Shown here piece by piece: positions 44,446 through 56,799 of a DNA stretch of 64,000 nt (position 1 is its first letter; each line of letters opens with the position of its first letter). The notes under the pieces are model-generated. The model was not told where the DNA came from, made no database searches, and was given only the letters and a program-made list of their open reading frames with translations. Origin of the DNA: an uncultured Bacteroidales bacterium (lineage in GTDB: Bacteria > Bacteroidota > Bacteroidia > Bacteroidales > UBA3824); NCBI GenBank assembly GCA_946624925.1, contig CAMOSO010000072.1, positions 9,029 to 73,028 of the forward strand, written 5' to 3'. Both the position numbers and the translations under genes were made by a program.

Positions 44446-46089
44446 CTACACGAAATCGCGCTTTGATTTTGATTTCAAATCATTTATTACACCAATCATA
44501 TAATCAATAGATTGTTTTATCAATTCAATATTGTCAAACTTGCTATTTAAAGGATGCGGATGGTCTATTTGATTACGTACACAATAAGGCAGAGAACGCT
44601 CTTGAATAACGAATCGCTTTTCGGGCAATGTTTCCTTATCGTTCCTAATTATTGGTTCTTCTTTTTTACCTATACGATAAAACTTTTCTATCCTTAAATT
44701 CGCCTTATAATTTGTTTTTAAATAATCGTCAATTTGTTCCAAACTATATGTAGCACTGTTTCTCTCATTTATCAATCGATGCATATAACCAAATAATTCA
44801 ATATGAAATTCTATTGAACCTTCAGCAAAGGCAATATAGTTAATTTCGTTCATTGAAACGTAATTGTTGTTGTATTTTAAAACACGTTCAGCCACATCAA
44901 TTCTTTCTGTACTGCCATTCGTTTGTTTCAAAACAATACACTTCACACCTTCTTTTTCTTTCGCTAATTCTTTAACAATAAATGGCGAATGGGTCGTTAT
45001 AATAACTTGGTGTATTTTTGATAGATTTTTTAATGTTTCATACATTTTGCGCTGTTCATTTGGGTGCAAATGTGTTTCAGGTTCTTCAAAACCCATAATA
45101 ACAGTTTGATTAGAATTAAATTTGGGGTCAGACAACAATCTAAATATAGCATTCTTGACATTTGTCTGAAACCCCTCTCCTCTGTGCTGTAAAGGTATTC
45201 CACCATTCGTCATTAATATATCATTTGCTAGAATGTCGACGTCACTATTTTCAACGAATCTAAAACTTTCGTTTGATTTAAGAAACTCGTTTGATAATTG
45301 GGCGGCGATTTTATTCCTCGAAGAAATAACCCTCCGTTGAAGTTCGAAATAATCTTGTCGCAACAATAGTTTAATGTACCCATCAATAGTATCAGTAGTA
45401 CGTTGTAATCTGAATAGTTCTGAGAACTTACTGCACATTAGTTTGTCATAATCGAATCCAATATATTTCTCTTTCCTTTTAGATGTATTGTTTCGGCAAT
45501 ACTTGAATAAATCATCGCATATTTTTTCACTCTCCTCATGATATTCATTAAGAACTTTACGTTTAGAAGTGTTATTTAAATTAAATGATAAATGTTTTTC
45601 TCGTAGTGTATTAATGTCTATTTTAGAAAAAATATTGCCAATTTCATCGAAATAATATGCCTTTATTTCATACACATTAGGTTTTGTTCCTGATCTGTAA
45701 TTATTCCATGATAATGGATTTACCAATTGTTTTTTTATACAAATACAATCATCCTCTATAAAGTCTTTTACAAAATAATGTGTTTTTAAACTGCCAAAAG
45801 AGTTTACGTTTACGCATTGTATCATTTCATCCATTTCTCCCGTGAAAATAATTTCCACAGAAAATTCTCCATCGTCTCCAAAAATAGAATCTGATTGATT
45901 TTTTCTTATTGTATCATAATTAAAATCATAACCGTCAAATTCTCTTTGCCCGAAAAACCACTCCAATGCAACAAATATAGTAGATTTACCCACATCATTT
46001 TTGCCTACGATGCAGTTAAAATCATCAAAATCAATTTCAACGTGTTTGTATGCGCGGAAATTGGTTAATATCATTTTCTTGATTTTCAT
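44446..46089 (-). CDS. AAA_15/OLD-type ABC-like ATPase with a C-terminal domain carrying an Rx4H motif; no Toprim domain seen
   Basis: Start trimmed to MKIKKMILTNFRAYKHVEIDF...IVGKNDVGKSTIF (Walker A). ...GFEEPETHLHP (Walker B/D-loop), ITTHSP. C-terminus ...CVRNQIDHPHP. Confidence 0.7.
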   Translation of the reverse strand: MKIKKMILTNFRAYKHVEIDFDDFNCIVGKNDVGKSTIFVALEWFFGQREFDGYDFNYDTIRKNQSDSIFGDDGEFSVEIIFTGEMDEMIQCVNVNSFGSLKTHYFVKDFIEDDCICIKKQLVNPLSWNNYRSGTKPNVYEIKAYYFDEIGNIFSKIDINTLREKHLSFNLNNTSKRKVLNEYHEESEKICDDLFKYCRNNTSKRKEKYIGFDYDKLMCSKFSELFRLQRTTDTIDGYIKLLLRQDYFELQRRVISSRNKIAAQLSNEFLKSNESFRFVENSDVDILANDILMTNGGIPLQHRGEGFQTNVKNAIFRLLSDPKFNSNQTVIMGFEEPETHLHPNEQRKMYETLKNLSKIHQVIITTHSPFIVKELAKEKEGVKCIVLKQTNGSTERIDVAERVLKYNNNYVSMNEINYIAFAEGSIEFHIELFGYMHRLINERNSATYSLEQIDDYLKTNYKANLRIEKFYRIGKKEEPIIRNDKETLPEKRFVIQERSLPYCVRNQIDHPHPLNSKFDNIELIKQSIDYMIGVINDLKSKSKRDFV

Positions 46090-46294
46090 TGGCGTTGTGT
46101 TGTTTTTGCTTAACTTTGCAAAAGTAACACATAATAAATGAACTTGCAAATTTTTTTTCGCAAAAAATATCACAATTATCGACTAATTGCCTCCCTAATA
46201 AAAGAATTAATCGCTTTCGCGAATGTGCAAGATGTTTTTTGCGGCAGTGGTTTGTGGAAAGAAAAAATATTTCTATCTTTGCGACATCTTAAAT

Positions 46295-46388
46295 GCGGGA
46301 ATAGTTCAGTGGCAGTACAATATTCTGCCAACGGTTAGAACGCACATACGGTCTATGTGATACACGAGTTCGAATCTTGTTTCCCGCA
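46295..46388 (+). tRNA. Non-canonical tRNA-like RNA, copy 1 (tRNA-Gly-type acceptor and T arm; hairpin inserted in the D-loop; ACGGTCT loop at the anticodon position)
   Basis: Acceptor 46295-301/46381-87 (GCGGGAA/TTCCCGC). D-stem 46304-07/46338-41 (GTTC/GAAC). Inserted hairpin 46311-15/46325-29 (GGCAG/CTGCC). Stem 46343-47/46355-59 (CACAT/ATGTG). T arm 46364-68/46376-80 with a TTCGAAT loop. TAtcTTTG -7 box at 46274-81. No encoded CCA. Confidence 0.6.
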
Positions 46389-46412
46389 CTATTTATTTTG
46401 CGACAACAAAAT

Positions 46413-46541
46413 GCGGGAATAGCTTAGTGGCAGAGCATTATTCTGCCAATGGTTAGAGCACGCACTTATTATTTATTTTGAAAAACACGCTTCGTATAAA
46501 TAGTAAGTGCGGAGACACGAGTTCGAATCTTGTTTCCCGCT
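46413..46541 (+). tRNA. Non-canonical tRNA-like RNA, copy 2 (same scaffold; anticodon-position arm extended to a 16-bp helix with a 19-nt loop)
   Basis: Acceptor 46413-19/46534-40. D-stem GCTT 46422-25 / GAGC 46456-59. Inserted hairpin 46429-34/46442-47. Long arm 46461-76/46496-511 (CGCAC+TTATTATTTAT / ATAAATAGTAA+GTGCG). T arm 46517-33. Discriminator T. Confidence 0.6.
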
Positions 46542-46622
46542 CTATTTTAATTGGTTCCACAATTGACGGCAATATTAACAAAAAATATCATTCCGAAAGT
46601 TTTTTTATAGATGTCAACTTCT

Positions 46623-47717
46623 TCAAAACCATTTCTCCAAACCTCTTACACCTTCCCTCACTTCATCAATAATATCCTTGCATCGTTTTTCAGAAATTTT
46701 GATGTTTTTGCCGACGAAAATCATATCTGCGTCGTTGGGCAAACCGTTGAAATTCACAGTTGTAGCGTGTTCGCCGAGGGTGTTGTCGTTTGTGAGGTCG
46801 TAGGCGGGCGAAAGATGCCAACGACCGTTTTTATAAATAAATGAAAAATTGCGGGCGTGGTCATCTAAATTTTTGGCAATAACGTTGAAAGCCATTCTAC
46901 GAAATTGTTGTTCGACCTCTTGCGAACTTTGTGTCAGATAGCCTGTAAGTTGCAAAAGCGAGTTGTAATCCATTTTAGGCGGGGTGATTGGCTCGTTCAA
47001 AAGTCCACTTGCCGTAACAACGTGCAGCCGTTCCCCGTTTGGTAAAATGTCAAAACGCTTTACCCCGAAATATTTGCCATCAAATAGTTTAAAATCAGGG
47101 ACATCGATTCCACATTTGCGTGCTGCAAGATTATAAGCATATTCGATTTCACCGATGTCTTTGCGGTCGTAAATATGACGAAATTTCACAATCCAATGCC
47201 CGTCTGCATCGGTGTAAAGGCATTTTGGACGTGCGCCACCTGAATTACCGCTCTTGTTGAATAACATTCCGGCGGCAGAATCGGTCTTTTCGGAAAGAAC
47301 ATCGTTGATAATCTGTTGCATTTGGTCAAAAGAACCGTCAAAACTGTCGTTAATTACCTTGTTTTCAGGTATATAACACAACGCCCCAAGACCACCACTT
47401 CCCACAAGACTTAGTTTTTGCACAGGTGTAAGCGATTGATAATCAATGCTATTCTTTTTTAACACCTTGTTTATGAGATATTCGCCGTAACCTCCGGGCA
47501 ATGAATCTTCAAAAACGCCGAAATTGCCGTTAAAAGGTTGATAATCAGCAGTAAAAATACCTGATTTTAACGGCAGTTTTAATGGCGAAATCGAAAAGCC
47601 GTCAACAAGCCACTGTTTGTCGTACTCAAAACTGCAAACACCGCGCTTTCTGCAAGTAAGTGTACCAACTTTTTTGCCGTGATACAACACGTTTACTAAC
47701 AACAACTTATCTATCAT
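46623..47717 (-). CDS. hipA: HipA-family serine/threonine kinase toxin
   Basis: HipA N-terminal coupling domain (VGTLT...FEYD..W) and C-terminal kinase motifs (SGGARPKC, NLDDHARNFSFIY, LSPAYDL). Overlaps the upstream HTH gene by 4 nt. Confidence 0.85.
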   Translation of the reverse strand: MIDKLLLVNVLYHGKKVGTLTCRKRGVCSFEYDKQWLVDGFSISPLKLPLKSGIFTADYQPFNGNFGVFEDSLPGGYGEYLINKVLKKNSIDYQSLTPVQKLSLVGSGGLGALCYIPENKVINDSFDGSFDQMQQIINDVLSEKTDSAAGMLFNKSGNSGGARPKCLYTDADGHWIVKFRHIYDRKDIGEIEYAYNLAARKCGIDVPDFKLFDGKYFGVKRFDILPNGERLHVVTASGLLNEPITPPKMDYNSLLQLTGYLTQSSQEVEQQFRRMAFNVIAKNLDDHARNFSFIYKNGRWHLSPAYDLTNDNTLGEHATTVNFNGLPNDADMIFVGKNIKISEKRCKDIIDEVREGVRGLEKWF

Positions 47718-48028
47718 ACGCCCCTCCTTCTTGTGCTGTTTTTGTTGATTTCCAAAAGTTCTTCCATTGTGTCGTACTTAGGTTCGGAGAGAAGGTTCAT
47801 AATCTCTTCGGAATAGCCTAACGCCTTGGCTATCTTTACGAAAGATTCGAGCGAGATGGAGTGTTTCAATTCAAAACGCTGAATTGTTGGTGCCGGCACG
47901 CCGCTCATTTGCGCAAGAGTTTTGGTGGAGAATTTCTTCTCCAATCGCCTTGCTTTCAGGTTTTCAGCAAGACGCCGCATCGTTACCTCCAATGGGTACG
48001 GGTCAAAAACGTATTTGTTAAATTCCAT
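47714..48028 (-). CDS. XRE-family HTH antitoxin (HipB-like)
   Basis: HTH segment FSTKTLAQMSGVPAPTIQRFELKHSISLESFVKIAKALG. Start trimmed to the ATG (MEFNKY). TAccTTTG -7 box at 48055-62 on the minus strand. Confidence 0.75.
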   Translation of the reverse strand: MEFNKYVFDPYPLEVTMRRLAENLKARRLEKKFSTKTLAQMSGVPAPTIQRFELKHSISLESFVKIAKALGYSEEIMNLLSEPKYDTMEELLEINKNSTRRRGV

Positions 48029-48092
48029 AATCAAATAGTGTTTTGTTGATGTAGCAAAGGTAACATATTTCCTTCTAATCTCAAAATTTTAC

Positions 48093-50053: not shown

Positions 50054-50944
50054 ATGACACATCTAAACGAATTAGAAGCGGAATCAATTTATATACTGCG
50101 CGAAGTGGCTGCGCAGTTTCAACGTCCGGCAATATTGTTTTCGGGCGGAAAGGATTCCATTGTGGTAACATACTTGGCTTACAAGGCGTTCTATCCTGCC
50201 AAATTGCCGTTTCCGTTGGTGCATATCGACACGGGACACAATTTTCAAGAGACTCTCGACTACCGCGACGAACTTGTAAAACGTCTCAATGCCGAACTCA
50301 TTGTTGGCTCGGTTCAAAAGAGCATCGACACCGGTCGCGTAAAGGAAGAAACTGGTTACAACGCATCGCGCAACGCCCTGCAAACCACCACATTACTCGA
50401 TACTATTGAGGAATACAAATTTGACGCTTGCATTGGCGGAGCACGCCGCGACGAGGAGAAAGCCCGCGCCAAGGAACGTATTTTTTCGCACCGCGACGAG
50501 TTTGGTCAGTGGAATCCCAAAAACCAACGTCCCGAACTTTGGAACATTCTCAACGGCAAGAAAAATATGGGCGAACATTTCCGCGTGTTCCCCATCTCAA
50601 ATTGGACCGAAATGGACGTTTGGCAGTACATCTCCCGCGAAAAAATTCCGCTGCCGAGCCTCTATTACACCCACACCCGCAAATGCTTTTTCCGTGATGG
50701 ACAGTGGCTTGCCGCCGAACCGTGCATCAAACGCCGTCCCGAAGAGGAAGTGGTAGAAAAGCAAGTTCGCTGCCGCACCATTGGCGACATAACTTGCACA
50801 GGATTAACACTTTCCACTGCGCACTCCATCGAAGACATCATTGCCGAAACAGCCGCAACCCGCGTAACAGAGCGCGGCGGACGTGCCGACGACAAACGCA
50901 GCGAAACTGCTATGGAGGACAGGAAGATTAATGGGTATTTTTAA
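50054..50944 (+). CDS. cysD: Sulfate adenylyltransferase subunit 2
   Basis: LEAESIYILREV...ILFSGGKDS (PP-loop)...HIDTGHNF...RRDEEKARAKERIFS...; typical length of 296 aa. Confidence 0.9.
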   Translation: MTHLNELEAESIYILREVAAQFQRPAILFSGGKDSIVVTYLAYKAFYPAKLPFPLVHIDTGHNFQETLDYRDELVKRLNAELIVGSVQKSIDTGRVKEETGYNASRNALQTTTLLDTIEEYKFDACIGGARRDEEKARAKERIFSHRDEFGQWNPKNQRPELWNILNGKKNMGEHFRVFPISNWTEMDVWQYISREKIPLPSLYYTHTRKCFFRDGQWLAAEPCIKRRPEEEVVEKQVRCRTIGDITCTGLTLSTAHSIEDIIAETAATRVTERGGRADDKRSETAMEDRKINGYF

Positions 50945-50965
50945 TTAAAAAAATAATTCAAATGC

Positions 50966-51012
50966 AAAATCATTGACTATCATTTAATTATGATTGGTCA
51001 ATGATTTTTTTT
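50966..51012 (+). terminator. Rho-independent terminator after cysD
   Basis: AAAATCATTGAC / GTCAATGATTTT stem followed by a T-run. Confidence 0.7.
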
Positions 51013-51057
51013 ATTATTTTGTACATTTTTTTGCAAAACTTTCGTTATATTTGCAGT

Positions 51058-51330
51058 GTCGGATAAGATGGCGACATACATAGCCATTCTGATTCCTTCA
51101 AGGACGTTTTATTGACGCGAATCTACTAATCGCAAAACTTCGCAACTTTTGTTATAGGGTAGAGTAAACGGCAATGCAACGTCCGCGTTTATGTGATATA
51201 TATGGGTTTAATACGCCTAATATATATTCTGACGTGGACTTTTGCGTTGCTTATCTCATCCTATAAAGGCAATGCGAAGGCCTGCGATTAGTGGGATAAG
51301 TTGATGTAAAAAACTCCCACGTCTTTTTTG
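51058..51330 (+). ncRNA. Structured ~270-nt ncRNA immediately upstream of the reverse transcriptase (DRT-type RT-associated ncRNA candidate)
   Basis: TAtaTTTG -7 box at 51046-53. The core is a ~170-nt irregular hairpin built from long-range pairs 51125-33/51284-92, 51138-44/51273-79, 51152-60/51258-66, 51176-81/51245-50 and 51181-88/51232-39, plus an AT-rich apical stem. A 3' hairpin 51291-96/51315-20 is followed by a T-run at 51324-29. No plausible ORF. Confidence 0.6.
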
Positions 51331-51386
51331 TGTTTAATTCCGAGTTTGGGTGAGCGTTCGGCGGAGAAAAATCTTATTGTCAAAAA

Positions 51387-52877
51387 ATGGCAGAAAGAAT
51401 TACAGAATTATCCGCAGACGATGCAAGGAACTTCTTCCTTAATGCGAAGTGTTATTCGACAATAGATTTGCCGAAGTACTTTGATTTTCAACCGTTGTTG
51501 GATAAGTTGTCAACAGAAATGTCAGGAATAGATTATTCAAGGATTACAAGCGATTCGCCAAGAAAATTTGACAATGTAAACTACAAATTTTACCAAAACA
51601 AGGATGGCAATTTGGCGTGGCGCAAGATGGAGATTATTAACCCTGTTTTGTATATCAAGTTGGTTGGTATTATAACAGAACCGCATAATTGGGCATTGTT
51701 GCAAACGCATTTCAAAAATTGTTCGGCAAGCGACAAAATAGAGTGTCATAGTATTCCGTTCAATTTTGAAACATCGGACATATCTGCCAATTCTGTTATC
51801 AATTGGTGGGATCGAGTTGAACAGCAATCACTTGAACTATCTCTGAAATATGAATGGCTTGCTAATACAGACATTACCGATTGTTATGGCACATTATATA
51901 CCCACACAATTGTTTGGGCATTGCATACTAAGTCTGTTGCAAAACAAAATCCAAACGATAGGTCATTGCTCGGTAATAAAATAGATACTGAGTTGGAAGA
52001 AATGAACTATCGTCAAACCAACGGTATTCCACAAGGTAGTATTTTGATGGATTTTATTGCCGAAATCGTTTTAGGTTATGCAGATACATTGTTATTGGAC
52101 AAGATAGGTAACTCAATTCCCGATTTCAAGATTCTGCGTTACAGAGACGACTACCGTATTTTCACAAAGACGAAAGAAGATGCAGTGAAAATTTTGCGTC
52201 TGTTGTCTGTGGTTCTGACTGATTTGAACTTCAAACTCAACAATCAAAAAACATTTGTAACACAAGAACTTATCACAGATGCAATTAAACCTGACAAGTT
52301 GTATTGGAACAGTGTCAAGCAAGAGGAAACATCATTGCAGAAACATTTGTTGATTATCCATAAATTGTCGAAAGAATATCCCAATTCAGGAAGCATATCA
52401 AGAGCGTTGACCGACTTTATGGGAAGAATAACGCCTAATAAAATTCAGGGACAAAATTTGGCTGTTCTTGTTGCAATCCTGACAGACATCGCCCTTCACA
52501 ATTCAAAGGTATATGCCTTGGTTGCCGCGACTATTGCAAAAATTGTTTCATACGAACCTGACAATACAAAAAAAGAGGAACTATACAAATTAGTTGCCCA
52601 AAAATTGAGTGTTCTTCCCAACATTGGCTATCTGTTGGTTTGGTTGCAACGTATGGTTATCAAAGACAACATAGTGATTGACAAATGCAACGAGGAAGAT
52701 TTATGTCAAATTGTCAACGACACAAAAAACGCCTGTGACCTTTGGAATAATTGTTGGCTTAATGATACATTCAAAAATCACATTAGAAACACGCCAATAA
52801 TCAACCGTCAGGCATTGGATTCGCTGCCATCCGTCCCCGACGACAACGAGGTGAAACTTTTTATTAACAAATACTAA
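51387..52877 (+). CDS. Stand-alone defence-type reverse transcriptase (UG/Abi class, DRT2-like architecture): N-terminal extension, RT palm/fingers, and a helical alpha-repeat-like C-terminal domain
   Basis: RT motifs TDITDCYGTLYTHTIVWALH (motifs 1/2), NGIPQGSILMDFIAEIVL (motif 4), ILRYRDDYRIFT (motif 5, YxDD) and LNFKLNNQKT (motif 6), followed by ~200 aa of helical repeats. No retron VTG/YADD context, no maturase X or endonuclease domain, and no partner effector gene. Confidence 0.85.
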   Translation: MAERITELSADDARNFFLNAKCYSTIDLPKYFDFQPLLDKLSTEMSGIDYSRITSDSPRKFDNVNYKFYQNKDGNLAWRKMEIINPVLYIKLVGIITEPHNWALLQTHFKNCSASDKIECHSIPFNFETSDISANSVINWWDRVEQQSLELSLKYEWLANTDITDCYGTLYTHTIVWALHTKSVAKQNPNDRSLLGNKIDTELEEMNYRQTNGIPQGSILMDFIAEIVLGYADTLLLDKIGNSIPDFKILRYRDDYRIFTKTKEDAVKILRLLSVVLTDLNFKLNNQKTFVTQELITDAIKPDKLYWNSVKQEETSLQKHLLIIHKLSKEYPNSGSISRALTDFMGRITPNKIQGQNLAVLVAILTDIALHNSKVYALVAATIAKIVSYEPDNTKKEELYKLVAQKLSVLPNIGYLLVWLQRMVIKDNIVIDKCNEEDLCQIVNDTKNACDLWNNCWLNDTFKNHIRNTPIINRQALDSLPSVPDDNEVKLFINKY

Positions 52878-52944
52878 AAAATGTGTAACCTTTTGGCGGA
52901 AATTGACACTAATGATTGTAAAACTAATAAATAACATACACAAA

Positions 52945-54120
52945 ATGAAAGCAAAATTTCTCATTCTCAGTTTGTTGATTGGGCTAATCAACATTGTGTC
53001 CTGTAACAACGGAAAAGATGAAAACATCCTCATCCCCGCTGGATTCGGCGACAAATGCGGTTTCATCGACAGAAACGGCAATTGGATAATCAACCCTCAA
53101 TTCACAGAAGTATACAACTTCGGTGAAAACGAATTGGCAGCAGCAAAATCCGATGACAAATGGGGATACATCGACAAACTTGGGCAATGGGTAATCAATC
53201 CTCAGTTTGACAAGGCGTACAACTTTGGAGAAAATGTATTGGCACCTGTCAAGATGGATGACAAATGGGGTTACATAGACAAGACAGGCAAATTGATTGT
53301 CAATCCGCAATTTGACAAGGCATACGCTTTCTCGAAAAACGGTTTGGCTGCCATCGAAATGGATGGCAAATGGGGATTCATCGATAAAACCGGCAAAATT
53401 GTCATAAATCTTCAATTCGATTCTGCATCAGGATTTGGCGATGATGAATTGTCTGGTGTAAAATTGAACGACTTATGGGGATACATTGACAAAACTGGTA
53501 AAATATTAATCAATCCTCAATTTGACGATGTAAACGGTTTCTCAGAAAACGGATTATGCGCAGTCAAAACCAACGGCAAGTGGGGATACATCGACAAAAC
53601 CGGCAAAATGCTAATCAACCCTCAGTTTGACGAAACATACGGTTTCACTAAAAACGGACTCGCATTGGTAAAGTTGAACGACAAGTGGGGATACATTGAC
53701 AATTCTGGTAAAATGGTAATCAATCCACAATTTGATGACGCTTATTATTTTGCCGAGAATGGATTGGCATCAGCCAAGGTAAACAAAAAATGGGGATTCA
53801 TTGATAAAACAGGAAAACTGATTATCAATCCGCAATTCGACCACGCAGACAGTTTTTGGGCTAATGGTTATGTAGCCGTAAAACTAAATGAGAAATGGGG
53901 CTGCATTGACAAGACTGGCAAAATAATCATTAATCCTCAGTATGACGACGTACTTGTACACAAGGACATTATTTTCGTCGGACAAAAGAAGGACGGAAGA
54001 AAATACGAAGACCCGAAATGGGGAATTGTTGACAAAGAAGGTAATGTAGTTGCAATTCCTCAGTTCGACTGGGTAATTGATTCTTACTGCAACTATAATC
54101 ATTCGTGGTTTAACGACTAA
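52945..54120 (+). CDS. WG-repeat (KWG) lipoprotein
   Basis: Lipobox INIVSC. About 11 copies of DKWGYIDKTGK..INPQFD.A..F.ENGLA.VK. Confidence 0.8.
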   Translation: MKAKFLILSLLIGLINIVSCNNGKDENILIPAGFGDKCGFIDRNGNWIINPQFTEVYNFGENELAAAKSDDKWGYIDKLGQWVINPQFDKAYNFGENVLAPVKMDDKWGYIDKTGKLIVNPQFDKAYAFSKNGLAAIEMDGKWGFIDKTGKIVINLQFDSASGFGDDELSGVKLNDLWGYIDKTGKILINPQFDDVNGFSENGLCAVKTNGKWGYIDKTGKMLINPQFDETYGFTKNGLALVKLNDKWGYIDNSGKMVINPQFDDAYYFAENGLASAKVNKKWGFIDKTGKLIINPQFDHADSFWANGYVAVKLNEKWGCIDKTGKIIINPQYDDVLVHKDIIFVGQKKDGRKYEDPKWGIVDKEGNVVAIPQFDWVIDSYCNYNHSWFND

Positions 54121-54255
54121 ATTGCGCAGATAATGAAAGCAATTATGTTAACAATGTTTATGTCGTTAGCAGTAATATGTGCGAGCGCGCAATTTTTCAT
54201 AAGTTGCGACCAACGCACATACTGCAAATGGAACGACGATACCCCAAAGTACGAT

Positions 54256-54405
54256 GTATGCGAAACCTGTACCCAACTCAATCAAAAAATTGGTAATATT
54301 GTTGAGCAACGAATCTTTCAATAAACGCTCATTATATCTGCCTGTTATGCCCGTAAACGCAAAATTGTAAGGGTCTTTGGTAAGTTCCTGAGCGAGGTCG
54401 CACAT
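54256..54405 (-). pseudogene. Fragment of a DUF1016 (YhcG-like PDDEXK nuclease) gene
   Basis: ...KDPYNFAFTGITGRYNERLLKDSLLNNITNFLIELGTGFAY matches the central KDPY.F.FL...E..LE......FLLELG.GF block of DUF1016. An intact paralog lies at 55654-56799. Both flanks are unrelated sequence. Confidence 0.5.
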
Positions 54406-55390
54406 CTCGTTTGGTTTTATAAAGCGATGATATGCTGTATTTTACGCCAATTCCCGCAAACCAATAGTTGAAATTCTTGTCGATTACCGGCACCTCAATC
54501 GTAATAGGTCCGTCAAAATGGTCTTCGGCAATGACAGCCACCTGCGGCAACATTCCGCTTTTGATGGTTTTTAGTTGGTTTTCAGCAAGATACGCCGCCT
54601 CTTGCGAAATCCTTACATTCACACCATTGTCTGCGTAAGAGTTTTGTAGCGTTGTATCGTTAAGATTTTCAACCATTTGCGCAATCTGTACGGTGTCGGG
54701 TGCAAAATCGTTTTTGCCTTCGTAACCCGTTGCCGTGGCTATCCGTCGGTAAAGTATCTGCAACCCGTCGGCCACTTTGCGCTTCGAGAGCAAAAGACTC
54801 TCTTTTTGGAGTTCGTAACGCAAAATATCGTTGCTGAGAGCCGTTCCTTGCGCCTCCATAACTCGCATATTTTCAATAACAACGTCGCACAGACGGAGGT
54901 TCTCGTCGAGGACGGCGGTCTGATTCCAAAGTCGGCAAATATCGAGATAATATCCCGCAATCATCAGCCTGAGGTTCTGACGCTCACTTTCAAGATTGAG
55001 GGCGGCAATATTGCGACCCGATTCGGCGGTCTTGACGGCATTTTTCACCGCGCCTCCACCATAAATCAACTGACTCGCCTGCACCGAAAAACTGTTCATA
55101 AAGTGCGGATTGTCAACGTGTAAAGAGTTTTTGAAATTTCTATCGGTCAACACGCCGTCGCCGAGATAGCCGATGCTGAGGCTTGCATTAAGGTCGGGCA
55201 GATTGCCGCTTTTGGCAGCCTCCACAGCGAGATTTGCGGCGTCGAGTTCGCTCTTCATCACCTTGATAGACGTGCTGTTGCGCTCAGCCTCGTCCCAAAG
55301 ATGTTGGAGCGTTACCACCTCGCCCTGCGCCCAAAGTTGCGCACTGAGCGTCATTGCCACAGCAAAACTGATAATTTTTTGTAATTCCAT
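54401..55390 (-). pseudogene. 3'-truncated TolC-family outer-membrane efflux protein gene
   Basis: Signal peptide plus ~330 aa of TolC/OEP-like sequence. It then switches abruptly (~54400) to a 22-aa unrelated tail and a stop; about 100 aa of the second OEP repeat are missing. Confidence 0.55.
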
Positions 55391-55653: not shown

Positions 55654-56799
55654 TTATTCATCCCCGCTACTTAACAGTTTTTTTAGTTCTTCGATGTCAG
55701 GGAGGGCGTTGCGGAAACGCTCGGGCATATCGGTGGCTGTGGTGAATGTTGCCACGCCCATAGGTTTGTCGTAATCCTGAATCATATATTCAACGTAAGT
55801 TTTGTCGGCACTTTTGCAGAGTACAATGCCTATGGATGGATTTTCGTGAGGCTTGCGCACATAATCGTCCAAAAGTCGTAGATAACCATTGAGTTCGCCT
55901 AAGTAAATCTGTTTGAACGCTCCTGTTTTCAATTCAATTGCCACCAAACAATTTAAATCGCGGTTGTAAAACAGCAAATCAATCCGATGGTCGTGTCCGG
56001 CAACTGTTATCGTGTATTGATTGCCAACAAACAAGAAATCCTTGCCAAATTTTAGGATAAATTTTTTGATGTTGTCAACAATTTTCTGTTCTACAACAGT
56101 TTCGTTAACTTCCTCAATATCACGTGCTCCAAGTTCCTCCACATTGATAAAATCAAGCATATATTGGTCTTTGAATGCAAGAATAGCCCTTTTTGCGAGG
56201 TTTCCAGATGGTAGCCGCTGCAAAAAATTGTTAGGCATCTGACCTTTTTTGCTATAAAGATTTTGTTTGATGCAGTTTTTGATACCGTCGGGCGTGAGGT
56301 GCTCGCGAGCGCATACCGAAATGTAGAACATACGCTCTTTACGGTCTTTGCATTGCGTCAAAATTTCGCTGTGATGAGTAAAACCAATACTTCTAAAATC
56401 ATTAGCGGGGAATGCATCCACGGCGGAAAAGTTGAACGGAAGCAAGTCGATAATTTCGTCAGTTTTAACTGGCGAAAATTCGTCCGTTTTAATGGACGAA
56501 TTTAAAACTGGGTCAAGTTCCGCCCATTCTTCATAAAAAGATCGCATACGTTTCAAACTTGTTTCCGAATAACCCCTCAATCCGGGCATATCTTTTTTAA
56601 GAAGTTGACTGATAGTGGCGATGGCGTGAGTGCCCCACTTTCCGTTACGGCTGTTTTGCGAAATAAAACGACCAATAGAGTAGTAGAGTGTCAACTGAAT
56701 ATTATTGACACCCTTTGCCGCCTCGTATTGGGCGTTCAGAATCGCGTTTTTGATGGTTGTGACGGCGCTGTTGTATGTTTGAATGTTGTTGTCGTGCAT
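55654..56799 (-). CDS. DUF1016 / YhcG-like PDDEXK nuclease-family protein
   Basis: N-terminal YhcG domain (...NNIQLTLYYSIGRFISQ...) and C-terminal PD-ExK block (RIDLLFYNRDLNCLVAIELKTG). Confidence 0.8.
   Translation of the reverse strand: MHDNNIQTYNSAVTTIKNAILNAQYEAAKGVNNIQLTLYYSIGRFISQNSRNGKWGTHAIATISQLLKKDMPGLRGYSETSLKRMRSFYEEWAELDPVLNSSIKTDEFSPVKTDEIIDLLPFNFSAVDAFPANDFRSIGFTHHSEILTQCKDRKERMFYISVCAREHLTPDGIKNCIKQNLYSKKGQMPNNFLQRLPSGNLAKRAILAFKDQYMLDFINVEELGARDIEEVNETVVEQKIVDNIKKFILKFGKDFLFVGNQYTITVAGHDHRIDLLFYNRDLNCLVAIELKTGAFKQIYLGELNGYLRLLDDYVRKPHENPSIGIVLCKSADKTYVEYMIQDYDKPMGVATFTTATDMPERFRNALPDIEELKKLLSSGDE

Follow-up and report, generated by a model that had tools for sequence, protein, structure and literature searches.

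An Abi-P2-family reverse transcriptase gene of a Bacteroidales bacterium, and the structured RNA in front of it that is probably a generic transcription leader

When a long structured RNA lies directly upstream of a reverse transcriptase (RT) gene, is it the partner of the enzyme, or does it belong to the transcription unit in which the gene happens to lie? This question is raised by a stretch of 64,000 nucleotides (nt) from an uncultured Bacteroidales bacterium (contig CAMOSO010000072.1 of assembly GCA_946624925.1; the whole stretch is called the window below), in which an RT of 496 amino acids (aa) is encoded immediately behind about 270 nt of structured RNA. An earlier note on this DNA had read the pair as a DRT2-like defence system (DRT, defence-associated reverse transcriptase) with its cognate non-coding RNA (ncRNA). 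We arrive at another explanation, which taken as a whole we hold to be probable: the enzyme is an Abi-P2 RT, and the RNA is a generic leader that controls transcriptional read-through into an operon made up of the RT gene and a WG-repeat lipoprotein gene. The features on which the argument turns, all on the forward strand, are as follows (positions are those of the window).

51046..51053, +, Bacteroidetes-type -7 promoter box TATATTTG (TAnnTTTG), read from the sequence
51056..51335, +, structured leader RNA, bounded by the inferred transcription start and the end of the U-tract; match to a profile of RT-less copies, and fold
51122..51295, +, giant multi-helix hairpin of 174 nt, eight stacked helices, apical loop near 51208-51214; minimum-free-energy fold
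51291..51329, +, terminator-like hairpin GUGGGA/UCCCAC with U6 behind it; the 5' arm shares positions with the base of the giant hairpin
51339..51365, +, second conserved hairpin with a GGG-containing loop (GUUUGGGUGAGCGU), followed by an A-rich tract and the ATG at 51387
51387..52877, +, gene for an RT-like DNA polymerase of the Abi-P2 family, 496 aa; sequence, hidden Markov model (HMM) and fold

By sequence and predicted fold the RT is an ordinary member of the known Abi-P2 family (UG/Abi class 1). The PADLOC AbiP2 model matches it from end to end (E 2e-181, 602 bits; residues 2-495 on profile positions 4-486 of 489), the runner-up among PADLOC models being Drt6 with 177 bits. The solved structure nearest by sequence is that of Abi-P2 itself (PDB 7R08, E 2e-76), which is also the top Foldseek match of an AlphaFold2 (AF2) model of the protein (pLDDT 87.5, pTM 0.88), with a template modelling (TM) score of 0.83-0.87 over about 510 columns; DRT4, DRT6 and AbiK follow at about 0.6, DRT2 (9c0i) at 0.31 and DRT9 at about 0.3. 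The AF2 model and its match to 7R08 describe a two-lobed protein, with RT-like palm and fingers and a helical C-terminal domain. The Pfam RVT_1 match is limited to residues 140-292, leaving an N-terminal extension and a long C-terminal part. The YRDD motif at residues 252-255 (nt 52140-52151) has the form of the Y(R/V)DD catalytic motif described for UG/Abi class 1 (PMC8632793). In a HMMER alignment Tyr31 (LPKYFDF; nt 51477-51479) falls on Tyr61 of 7R08 (LPAYINF), and we regard it as the putative priming tyrosine; Tyr31, D162 and the RYRDD segment (R251 to Y256) are invariant across 36 homologues.

The earlier note's description of the protein (496 aa, YRDD, N-terminal extension, helical C-terminal part) is thus borne out, and so is its placement of the RT in the UG/Abi class rather than among retron, group II intron or CRISPR-associated enzymes, which were considered and set aside (the NCBIfam retron model scores 18.3 bits, cut-off 235). 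A DRT2-like identity had to be rejected as well, as the NCBIfam Drt2 model scores 18.8 bits (cut-off 390) against the 602 bits of AbiP2 and the TM score to 9c0i is low. Nor does the RT represent a distinct Bacteroidota lineage in any special sense, since more than 5,700 homologous proteins are found at E <= 1e-10, many of them from Bacteroidota; Abi-P2 loci in reference genomes are spread over many phyla. It is a new member of a known family and, as an RT system, ordinary.

Abi-P2 synthesises DNA without a template and in a protein-primed manner, with Tyr61 required for priming (Figiel et al., PMC9508834); this tyrosine sits on a loop between the fingers helices alpha2 and alpha3 (PMC9508834). 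By homology, the window RT most likely makes protein-primed, untemplated single-stranded DNA during abortive infection; it would prime on its own Tyr31 and would need no RNA template. With the Abi-P2 of an E. coli P2-like prophage it shares, beside the full-length HMM match, the fold, YRDD and the priming tyrosine, a G+C content below that of its surroundings (here 37% against 44%). It differs in being only about 30-40% identical to it, in its chromosomal Bacteroidales context, as opposed to a P2 prophage, and in its position between a structured leader and a WG-repeat lipoprotein gene. AbiK, DRT4 (UG15) and DRT6 (UG12) have the same overall class-1 UG/Abi architecture, and protein-primed, template-independent synthesis has been demonstrated for AbiK and DRT4 (PMC9508834; PMC12783706), but the matches of the window RT to these systems are much weaker (at most 177 bits, TM about 0.6).

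How closely, then, is the RNA tied to this RT? In the window, L001/L002, L003 and L007, which make up the four closest RT relatives, it lies directly upstream of the RT gene and in the same orientation; nearest to the window RT are P0002 (86% identity; L001/L002) and P0003 (74%; L003). Beyond them the association dissolves. A profile search of a comparison set of 80 Abi-P2 loci, fetched from reference genomes, found the RNA within about 2 kb of the RT in five, namely L011 (on the same contig as L003), L007, L008, L010 and L042. In L010 the RNA is downstream of the RT, where it leads a C5-methylase/GHKL-ATPase pair, and an intervening gene separates RNA and RT in two more loci, one for UpxY in L008 and one for a trypsin-like protease in L042. 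In many of the RNA-less loci the space before the RT is shorter than 50 nt; in L004, whose RT is 58% identical, the gap from a protease gene to the RT is 24 nt. No other conserved upstream element was found across the Abi-P2 loci, apart from short lineage-specific stretches at the start codon.

Approached from the side of the RNA, the result is the same. A search for the RNA alone (pattern CGTGGRCTTYN{1,2}GCRTTGCTYRT) returned at least 120 metagenome stretches and 8 viral-contig stretches, and at least 126 loci from this search have a profile match to the RNA, mostly over its full length; all loci with the RNA together number at least 134. Among the matches listed, an Abi-P2-like RT occurs in none of the 126 (892 kb). 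The similarities of the two elements are also incongruent, again among the matches listed: the window RNA shares 51-53% identity with its counterparts in L001 and L003 and 60-62% with RT-less copies, L008 has an RNA most like that of the RT-less L095 (84%), and L042 one most like those of the RT-less L123 and L179. Judged by these sequence comparisons the RNA is not cognate to the RT, and the two do not evolve together. The pairing that the earlier note had proposed, with an RNA conserved alongside the RT, is accordingly not what the 80 Abi-P2 loci display, and a limited literature search found no description of an ncRNA for Abi-P2.

Two observations on the upstream regions of other Abi-P2 genes may be added here. 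Within a Chitinophagales-type group (L015, L019, L020, L026 and L028), identity over the final ~47 nt ahead of the RT start is 83-98%, as it is over a short stretch before the start in a cyanobacterial pair (L059 and L075); these stretches may be a promoter, part of the translation start or N-terminal coding sequence that is not annotated. In L049, an Abi-P2 locus from Balneolaceae, the 300 nt upstream of the RT form a very stable fold (z = -7.7 against mononucleotide shuffles), whose sequence is unrelated to the leader family.

To which element does the RNA belong, if not to the RT? In the window it begins behind a promoter box. The Bacteroidetes -7 promoter consensus is TAnnTTTG, and TATATTTG at 51046-51053 fits it perfectly, in agreement with the consensus promoter of the earlier note; the -33 TTTG is ambiguous, with copies at 51030-51033 and 51018-51021, neither at the usual spacing. 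A sigma-70 promoter scan gave no match at the locus, as expected in Bacteroidetes. The RNA was rightly described as free of open reading frames (ORFs), the longest ATG-initiated one within 51046-51386 having 30 codons. The 332-nt region 51055-51386 folds at -108.8 kcal/mol (z = -5.4, equalled by 0/100 shuffles), and its antisense strand at just -81.6 kcal/mol, so that the sense strand is favoured by 27 kcal/mol. The hairpin of ~170 nt that had been noted is there, its count of five helices is not, the minimum-free-energy fold having eight. The note's closing hairpin and T-run are likewise present: GTGGGA at 51291-51296 pairs with TCCCAC at 51315-51320, followed by T6 at 51324-51329. A simple terminator scan, with a loop limit of 8 nt, missed this hairpin because its loop is longer than that. 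The sense frame without stops for 126 nt (51163-51288, with TAG at either side) was confirmed, as was the longest antisense stop-free stretch inside the hairpin (96 nt; another, of 120 nt at 51254-51373, extends beyond it); the sense frame has no evident meaning.

The covariance models of Rfam 15 found nothing at E <= 1 in window positions 50800-53100. A profile built from 90 RT-less members alone, by contrast, hits the window at 51101-51335 (E 1e-25), its sole hit in 64 kb, and the window element is for this reason a member of a generic leader family, whose members a profile HMM separates cleanly from other sequences. A scan of 12 other members against Rfam gave chance hits to eukaryotic families, none at gathering score, and a limited literature search found no description of the RNA. 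The leader is apparently an uncatalogued family, widespread in gut Bacteroidales.

The structure of this RNA, which the earlier note had read from the window, covaries across the family. In a non-redundant alignment of 97 sequences (A8, MAFFT), on which the family counts are based, 85.6% of the cells of the giant hairpin are paired, against at most 49% with the partners slid, and changes on both sides of a pair are seen in 538 cells, against 182 +/- 13 in shuffles, with all five measures at 0/500. The helix of columns 81-90/379-388 includes all four Watson-Crick pair types (pair 84-386 is GC in 33, UA in 28, AU in 18 and CG in 4 sequences), the helix next to it has UA in 53 and CG in 40 sequences, and the terminator stem GUGGGA/UCCCAC covaries as well (pair 388-417, UA in 48 and CG in 30). 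G-U pairs are common in these helices; together with the strand asymmetry of the folding energy, they place the structure in the sense-strand RNA. Internal loops, such as AA/GCC between the two best-supported helices, are highly conserved. RNAalifold gave inconsistent consensus folds on MAFFT alignments of 3 and 6 sequences, owing to alternative pairings and misalignment, and the column-pair statistics on 97 sequences were used instead; the middle helix is not assessable from the MAFFT columns.

The alternative pairings are of interest in themselves. The arms of the hairpin carry similar sequences, segment a being about GCUUUGUUCUUGAC and segment c about GCUCGUUCUUGAC, so that a fold of two hairpins (a:b + c:d) competes with the giant hairpin (a:d + b:c). 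Segment e, just 5' of the U-tract, can have as its partner d (forming the terminator), f (GGCGUGGG) or h, a loop further downstream. Pairing in the alternative helices (a:b, c:d and f:e) reaches 94-97%, and some of the changes in them are compensatory; four columns covary jointly (GCGC in 53 sequences, AUAU in 16). In unconstrained minimum-free-energy folds of transcripts ending at the U-tract segment e is paired in 83 of 84, which makes termination look like the default state. Beyond this point lies a conserved hairpin, 40-50 nt past the U-tract, with the loop YGGGGA(A/G)UC, and then an A-rich tract and the ATG. The complementarity of the post-terminator loop to segment e is sequence-specific, with a mean best score of 14.55, against 10.97 +/- 0.38 when e is permuted among the sequences (0/200); this long-range pairing, h:e, is possible in read-through transcripts only.

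The RNA also stands in a fixed relation to the gene behind it. A same-strand ATG-initiated ORF of at least 50 aa begins less than 100 nt past the RNA in 80 of 92 members. The TAnnTTTG box is found upstream of the RNA in 69/93 members and in the spacer between terminator and ORF in 9/91 only. Taken together, the hairpin, the A-rich tract, the ORF spacing and the scarcity of promoter boxes in the spacer indicate a 5' untranslated region (UTR), not a free-standing small RNA.

What genes does the leader precede? The census covers the first downstream ORFs of 106 loci, and all of its counts are counts among the matches listed. These ORFs represent 101 Pfam families, with NusG-like proteins (9), BspA-type leucine-rich repeats (LRR_5, 7), LRR_8 (6), Big_2 (4), glycosyltransferase 2 (3) and VWA (3); RVT_1 as first ORF is confined to three loci, which had been drawn from the RT search. 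The largest cluster of downstream proteins is that of BspA-LRR/BACON surface proteins (26 loci), followed by Listeria-Bacteroides-repeat proteins (9 loci) and 196-aa NusG-like proteins (8 loci). The NusG-like proteins pass the NCBI UpxY model (122-175 bits, cut-off 100), and a UpxY gene is present in 9/106 family loci (about 9%), including L008, where it lies between RNA and RT. PADLOC found little defence content at the leader loci apart from the three RTs. Integrases, excisionase-like helix-turn-helix (HTH) genes and orphan ATPase/nuclease genes adjoin the leader units in variable neighbourhoods, and the flanks differ among the RT loci.

Most likely the RNA works as a 5' leader in which read-through is governed by premature termination and antitermination. 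It would be transcribed from the TAnnTTTG promoter as the 5' UTR of the RT and WG-repeat operon. Its layout would comprise, in order, a promoter, some 270 nt of bistable giant-hairpin RNA, an intrinsic terminator, a GGGA-loop hairpin and an A-rich translation start, and gut and rumen Bacteroidales set this leader before many unrelated accessory genes. Mutually exclusive pairings would decide whether the segment beside the U-tract sits in the terminator helix; most transcripts would stop at the U-tract, and read-through into the operon would depend on an antitermination factor, on the alternative fold or on the two together. According to published work, UpxY proteins keep transcription from ending early in the 5' UTR of their own operons (PMC7315117), and they are recruited in the leader of these operons (PMC11685472). 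In view of this literature, and of the UpxY gene directly downstream in about 9% of the copies, a UpxY/NusG-type factor is the leading candidate for the trigger, plausibly acting in trans at loci like that of the window. A leaky terminator might, we conjecture, hold the expression of such a gene low.

Several points weigh against this explanation, at the level of the window, of the family and of the enzyme. No NusG/UpxY-like gene is present in the 64-kb window, and 91% of the family members, among the matches listed, have none directly downstream. The window leader is a divergent member, at most 62% identical to any other among the matches listed, and in it the complementarity of the post-terminator loop to segment e is weak (6/9 pairs). 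The promoter, transcription start and termination are predictions from the DNA. The joint covariation of four columns comes mostly from one subfamily and reflects few independent events. The columns under the search pattern (CGTGGRCTTY..GCRTTGCTYRT) are conserved through the selection of loci, and MAFFT aligns the middle and apical helices poorly, the apical one as defined being only 12% paired. The biochemistry of Abi-P2, lastly, is carried over from a homologue of 30-40% identity.

These points have to be weighed together with what other explanations would achieve. If the RNA were the RT's cognate ncRNA after all, a template or scaffold as in DRT2 (rolling-circle neo), DRT9 (poly-dA) or the retrons, its place directly upstream of the four closest RT relatives would follow naturally, and the long hairpin with its stop-free frame would suit such a role. 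We nevertheless judge this highly improbable: the RT is Abi-P2 by sequence and fold and distant from DRT2 and DRT9, the two elements are found apart in the great majority of the loci compared, whichever of them is searched for, the RNA is missing before the RT of L004, no other upstream element is shared across the Abi-P2 loci, the RNA lies behind the RT or is separated from it by genes in L010, L008 and L042, its similarities do not follow those of the RT, and the stop-free region varies between family members by indels that are not multiples of three. Still less credible is a DNA-level element (a recombination site, a cassette boundary or a miniature inverted-repeat transposable element), an idea suggested by the leader-plus-gene units in variable neighbourhoods with integrases, excisionase-like HTH and orphan ATPase/nuclease genes and by the differing flanks of the RT loci. 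The pairing relies on G-U wobbles confined to the sense strand, the antisense strand folds 27 kcal/mol worse, orientation and spacing to promoter, terminator and ORF are fixed, and the copies, being 50-80% identical with compensatory changes, are not those of a recent transposition.

The two remaining alternatives leave the RNA its structure and change its mode of action. An independent small RNA, acting in trans and ending at the terminator, with the downstream genes using unrecognised promoters of their own, would explain the promoter-like box and terminator-like 3' end, and the near-constant pairing of segment e would mean that most transcripts may stop there; we think it improbable in view of the fixed spacing to a same-strand ORF, the few promoter boxes in the spacer, and the conserved hairpin and A-rich tract past the terminator, which covary with it. 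A riboswitch-like sensor, in which a small molecule, an ion, a tRNA or a phage cue would flip the fold without a UpxY-type protein, is unlikely rather than improbable. The size of the leader, the mutually exclusive conserved pairings around the terminator, the conserved internal loops such as AA/GCC and the many copies without UpxY directly downstream are what one would expect of it, but no one metabolite fits the 101 Pfam families downstream, mostly surface or accessory, the link to UpxY genes suggests a protein factor, and a ligand pocket cannot be inferred.

Known systems offer partial parallels to the locus. DRT2 (UG2) and DRT9 (UG28) also have a structured RNA upstream of the RT gene on the same strand, but the window RT is outside both families and its RNA is not RT-specific. 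The UpxY/opsX capsule leaders of Bacteroides, and RfaH with ops/JUMPStart in Proteobacteria, are likewise 5' leaders before accessory operons for surface structures, and some of the present leaders have UpxY directly downstream. However, ops and opsX are short pause elements, read on the non-template DNA near the start codon (PMC11685472), whereas the window leader covaries as an RNA, extends over about 270 nt and has a terminator of its own, and the family serves many non-capsule operons without a UpxY gene. The window locus resembles a UpxY operon in having the leader between a promoter box (51046-51053) and the first ATG (51387), and differs from it in that its first gene is not upxY. Antitermination leaders, whether RNA-based or dependent on a protein (LoaP leaders, EAR, put RNAs), and riboswitch expression platforms all share with the family a structured leader, a terminator and competing helices; the family differs from them in the giant hairpin with duplicated arms and in the post-terminator hairpin that pairs back, and it has no Rfam match.

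It follows that there is no ground for listing the window RT as a new DRT lineage with an ncRNA template, and genome scans should be made with some caution, as a structured RNA beside an RT is no evidence of partnership. What the locus brings to light is a family of well-covarying leader RNAs about 270 nt long, absent from Rfam and numbering at least 130 copies, before surface-protein, capsule (UpxY) and defence genes in gut and rumen Bacteroidales; it would offer a concrete RNA and terminator structure for the study of UpxY antitermination and suggests that such control extends well beyond capsule operons. A bolder version, which we put forward tentatively and rate as doubtful, is that the leader constitutes an uncatalogued class of bistable RNA that ties scattered accessory genes into one read-through-controlled regulon, with UpxY in trans or another signal. 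If this were true, the regulon would take in capsule operons, genes for surface-variation proteins, restriction-modification genes and abortive-infection genes (Abi-P2 among them), and a switch at the RNA level would act on phage defence and surface remodelling jointly.

Some further observations concern individual leader copies. In seven loci a conserved ORF of about 125 aa follows the UpxY gene, about 870-960 nt past the RNA (e.g. L127:1069-1449, -). Its position is that of UpxZ in Bacteroides capsule operons, and searches with Pfam and NCBIfam gave no match to it. L008 (CAVBXD010000010.1) presents the order leader RNA, UpxY, Abi-P2 and BspA-LRR gene; it comes from a metagenome-assembled genome labelled Oscillospiraceae (Firmicutes), all other placed copies being from Bacteroidales, and the label could reflect mis-binning or horizontal transfer. 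Leader RNAs are carried by L207-L214, IMG/VR contigs classed as viral. In the plasmid and phage databases there were just two matches, both partial. One is at 1482-1576 of an unannotated faecal phage record (MT839469.1); the other belongs to a Bacteroides finegoldii plasmid, on which hypothetical, outer-membrane and lipocalin genes lie downstream of it. Phages or prophages of the leader's hosts may use the same leader.

The immediate neighbour of the RT gene has its own bearing on the operon.

52903..54120, +, WG-repeat (WG_beta_rep) lipoprotein gene, co-oriented with the RT gene; Pfam E 2e-111

This gene, which begins 25 nt past the RT stop and is probably in the same operon, was overlooked in the earlier note, whose statement that no effector gene accompanies the RT is made doubtful by it. 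A WG_beta_rep homologue follows the RT in L003 (4534-5733; 46% identity to that of the window), and in L031 a WG_beta_rep lipoprotein gene lies upstream of the RT (66-1160; 31% identity). The WG-repeat lipoprotein could be a functional partner of the RT or neighbouring cargo of the leader.

A different neighbour recurs elsewhere. A trypsin-like serine protease gene (Pfam Trypsin_2), absent from the window, adjoins an Abi-P2-type RT, on either side, in five distinct loci (L001:2151-4562, L004:1528-2976, L042:2357-3979, L023 and L085), one of them from Chloroherpeton. The RTs of these loci are 41-86% identical to that of the window, and the proteases have a weak PADLOC match to the RT-protease model of retron type XI. 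Abi-P2 with a trypsin-like protease may be a two-gene variant.

Just past the RT and WG-repeat unit, on the reverse strand, a 79-aa ORF (54166-54405, -) has, by eye, the look of a DUF1016/YhcG-type nuclease reduced to its C-terminal part; an OEP outer-membrane efflux gene (54332-55390, -; 351 aa, perhaps truncated) overlaps this ORF with its 3' end, and a complete YhcG nuclease gene is found at 55654-56799 (-). The nuclease fragment, the overlap and the complete gene together suggest a rearranged insertion hot spot at this place. On the upstream side of the RT, at a distance of 3-7 kb, an AAA_15/AAA_21 ATPase of AbiEii/OLD-like type and a HipA-like kinase with its HTH partner (44446-48034, -) make up a loose cluster of genes for defence and toxin-antitoxin functions, and between this cluster and the RT are housekeeping genes (a HAD hydrolase, identified by eye, ApbE and a CysD-like gene).

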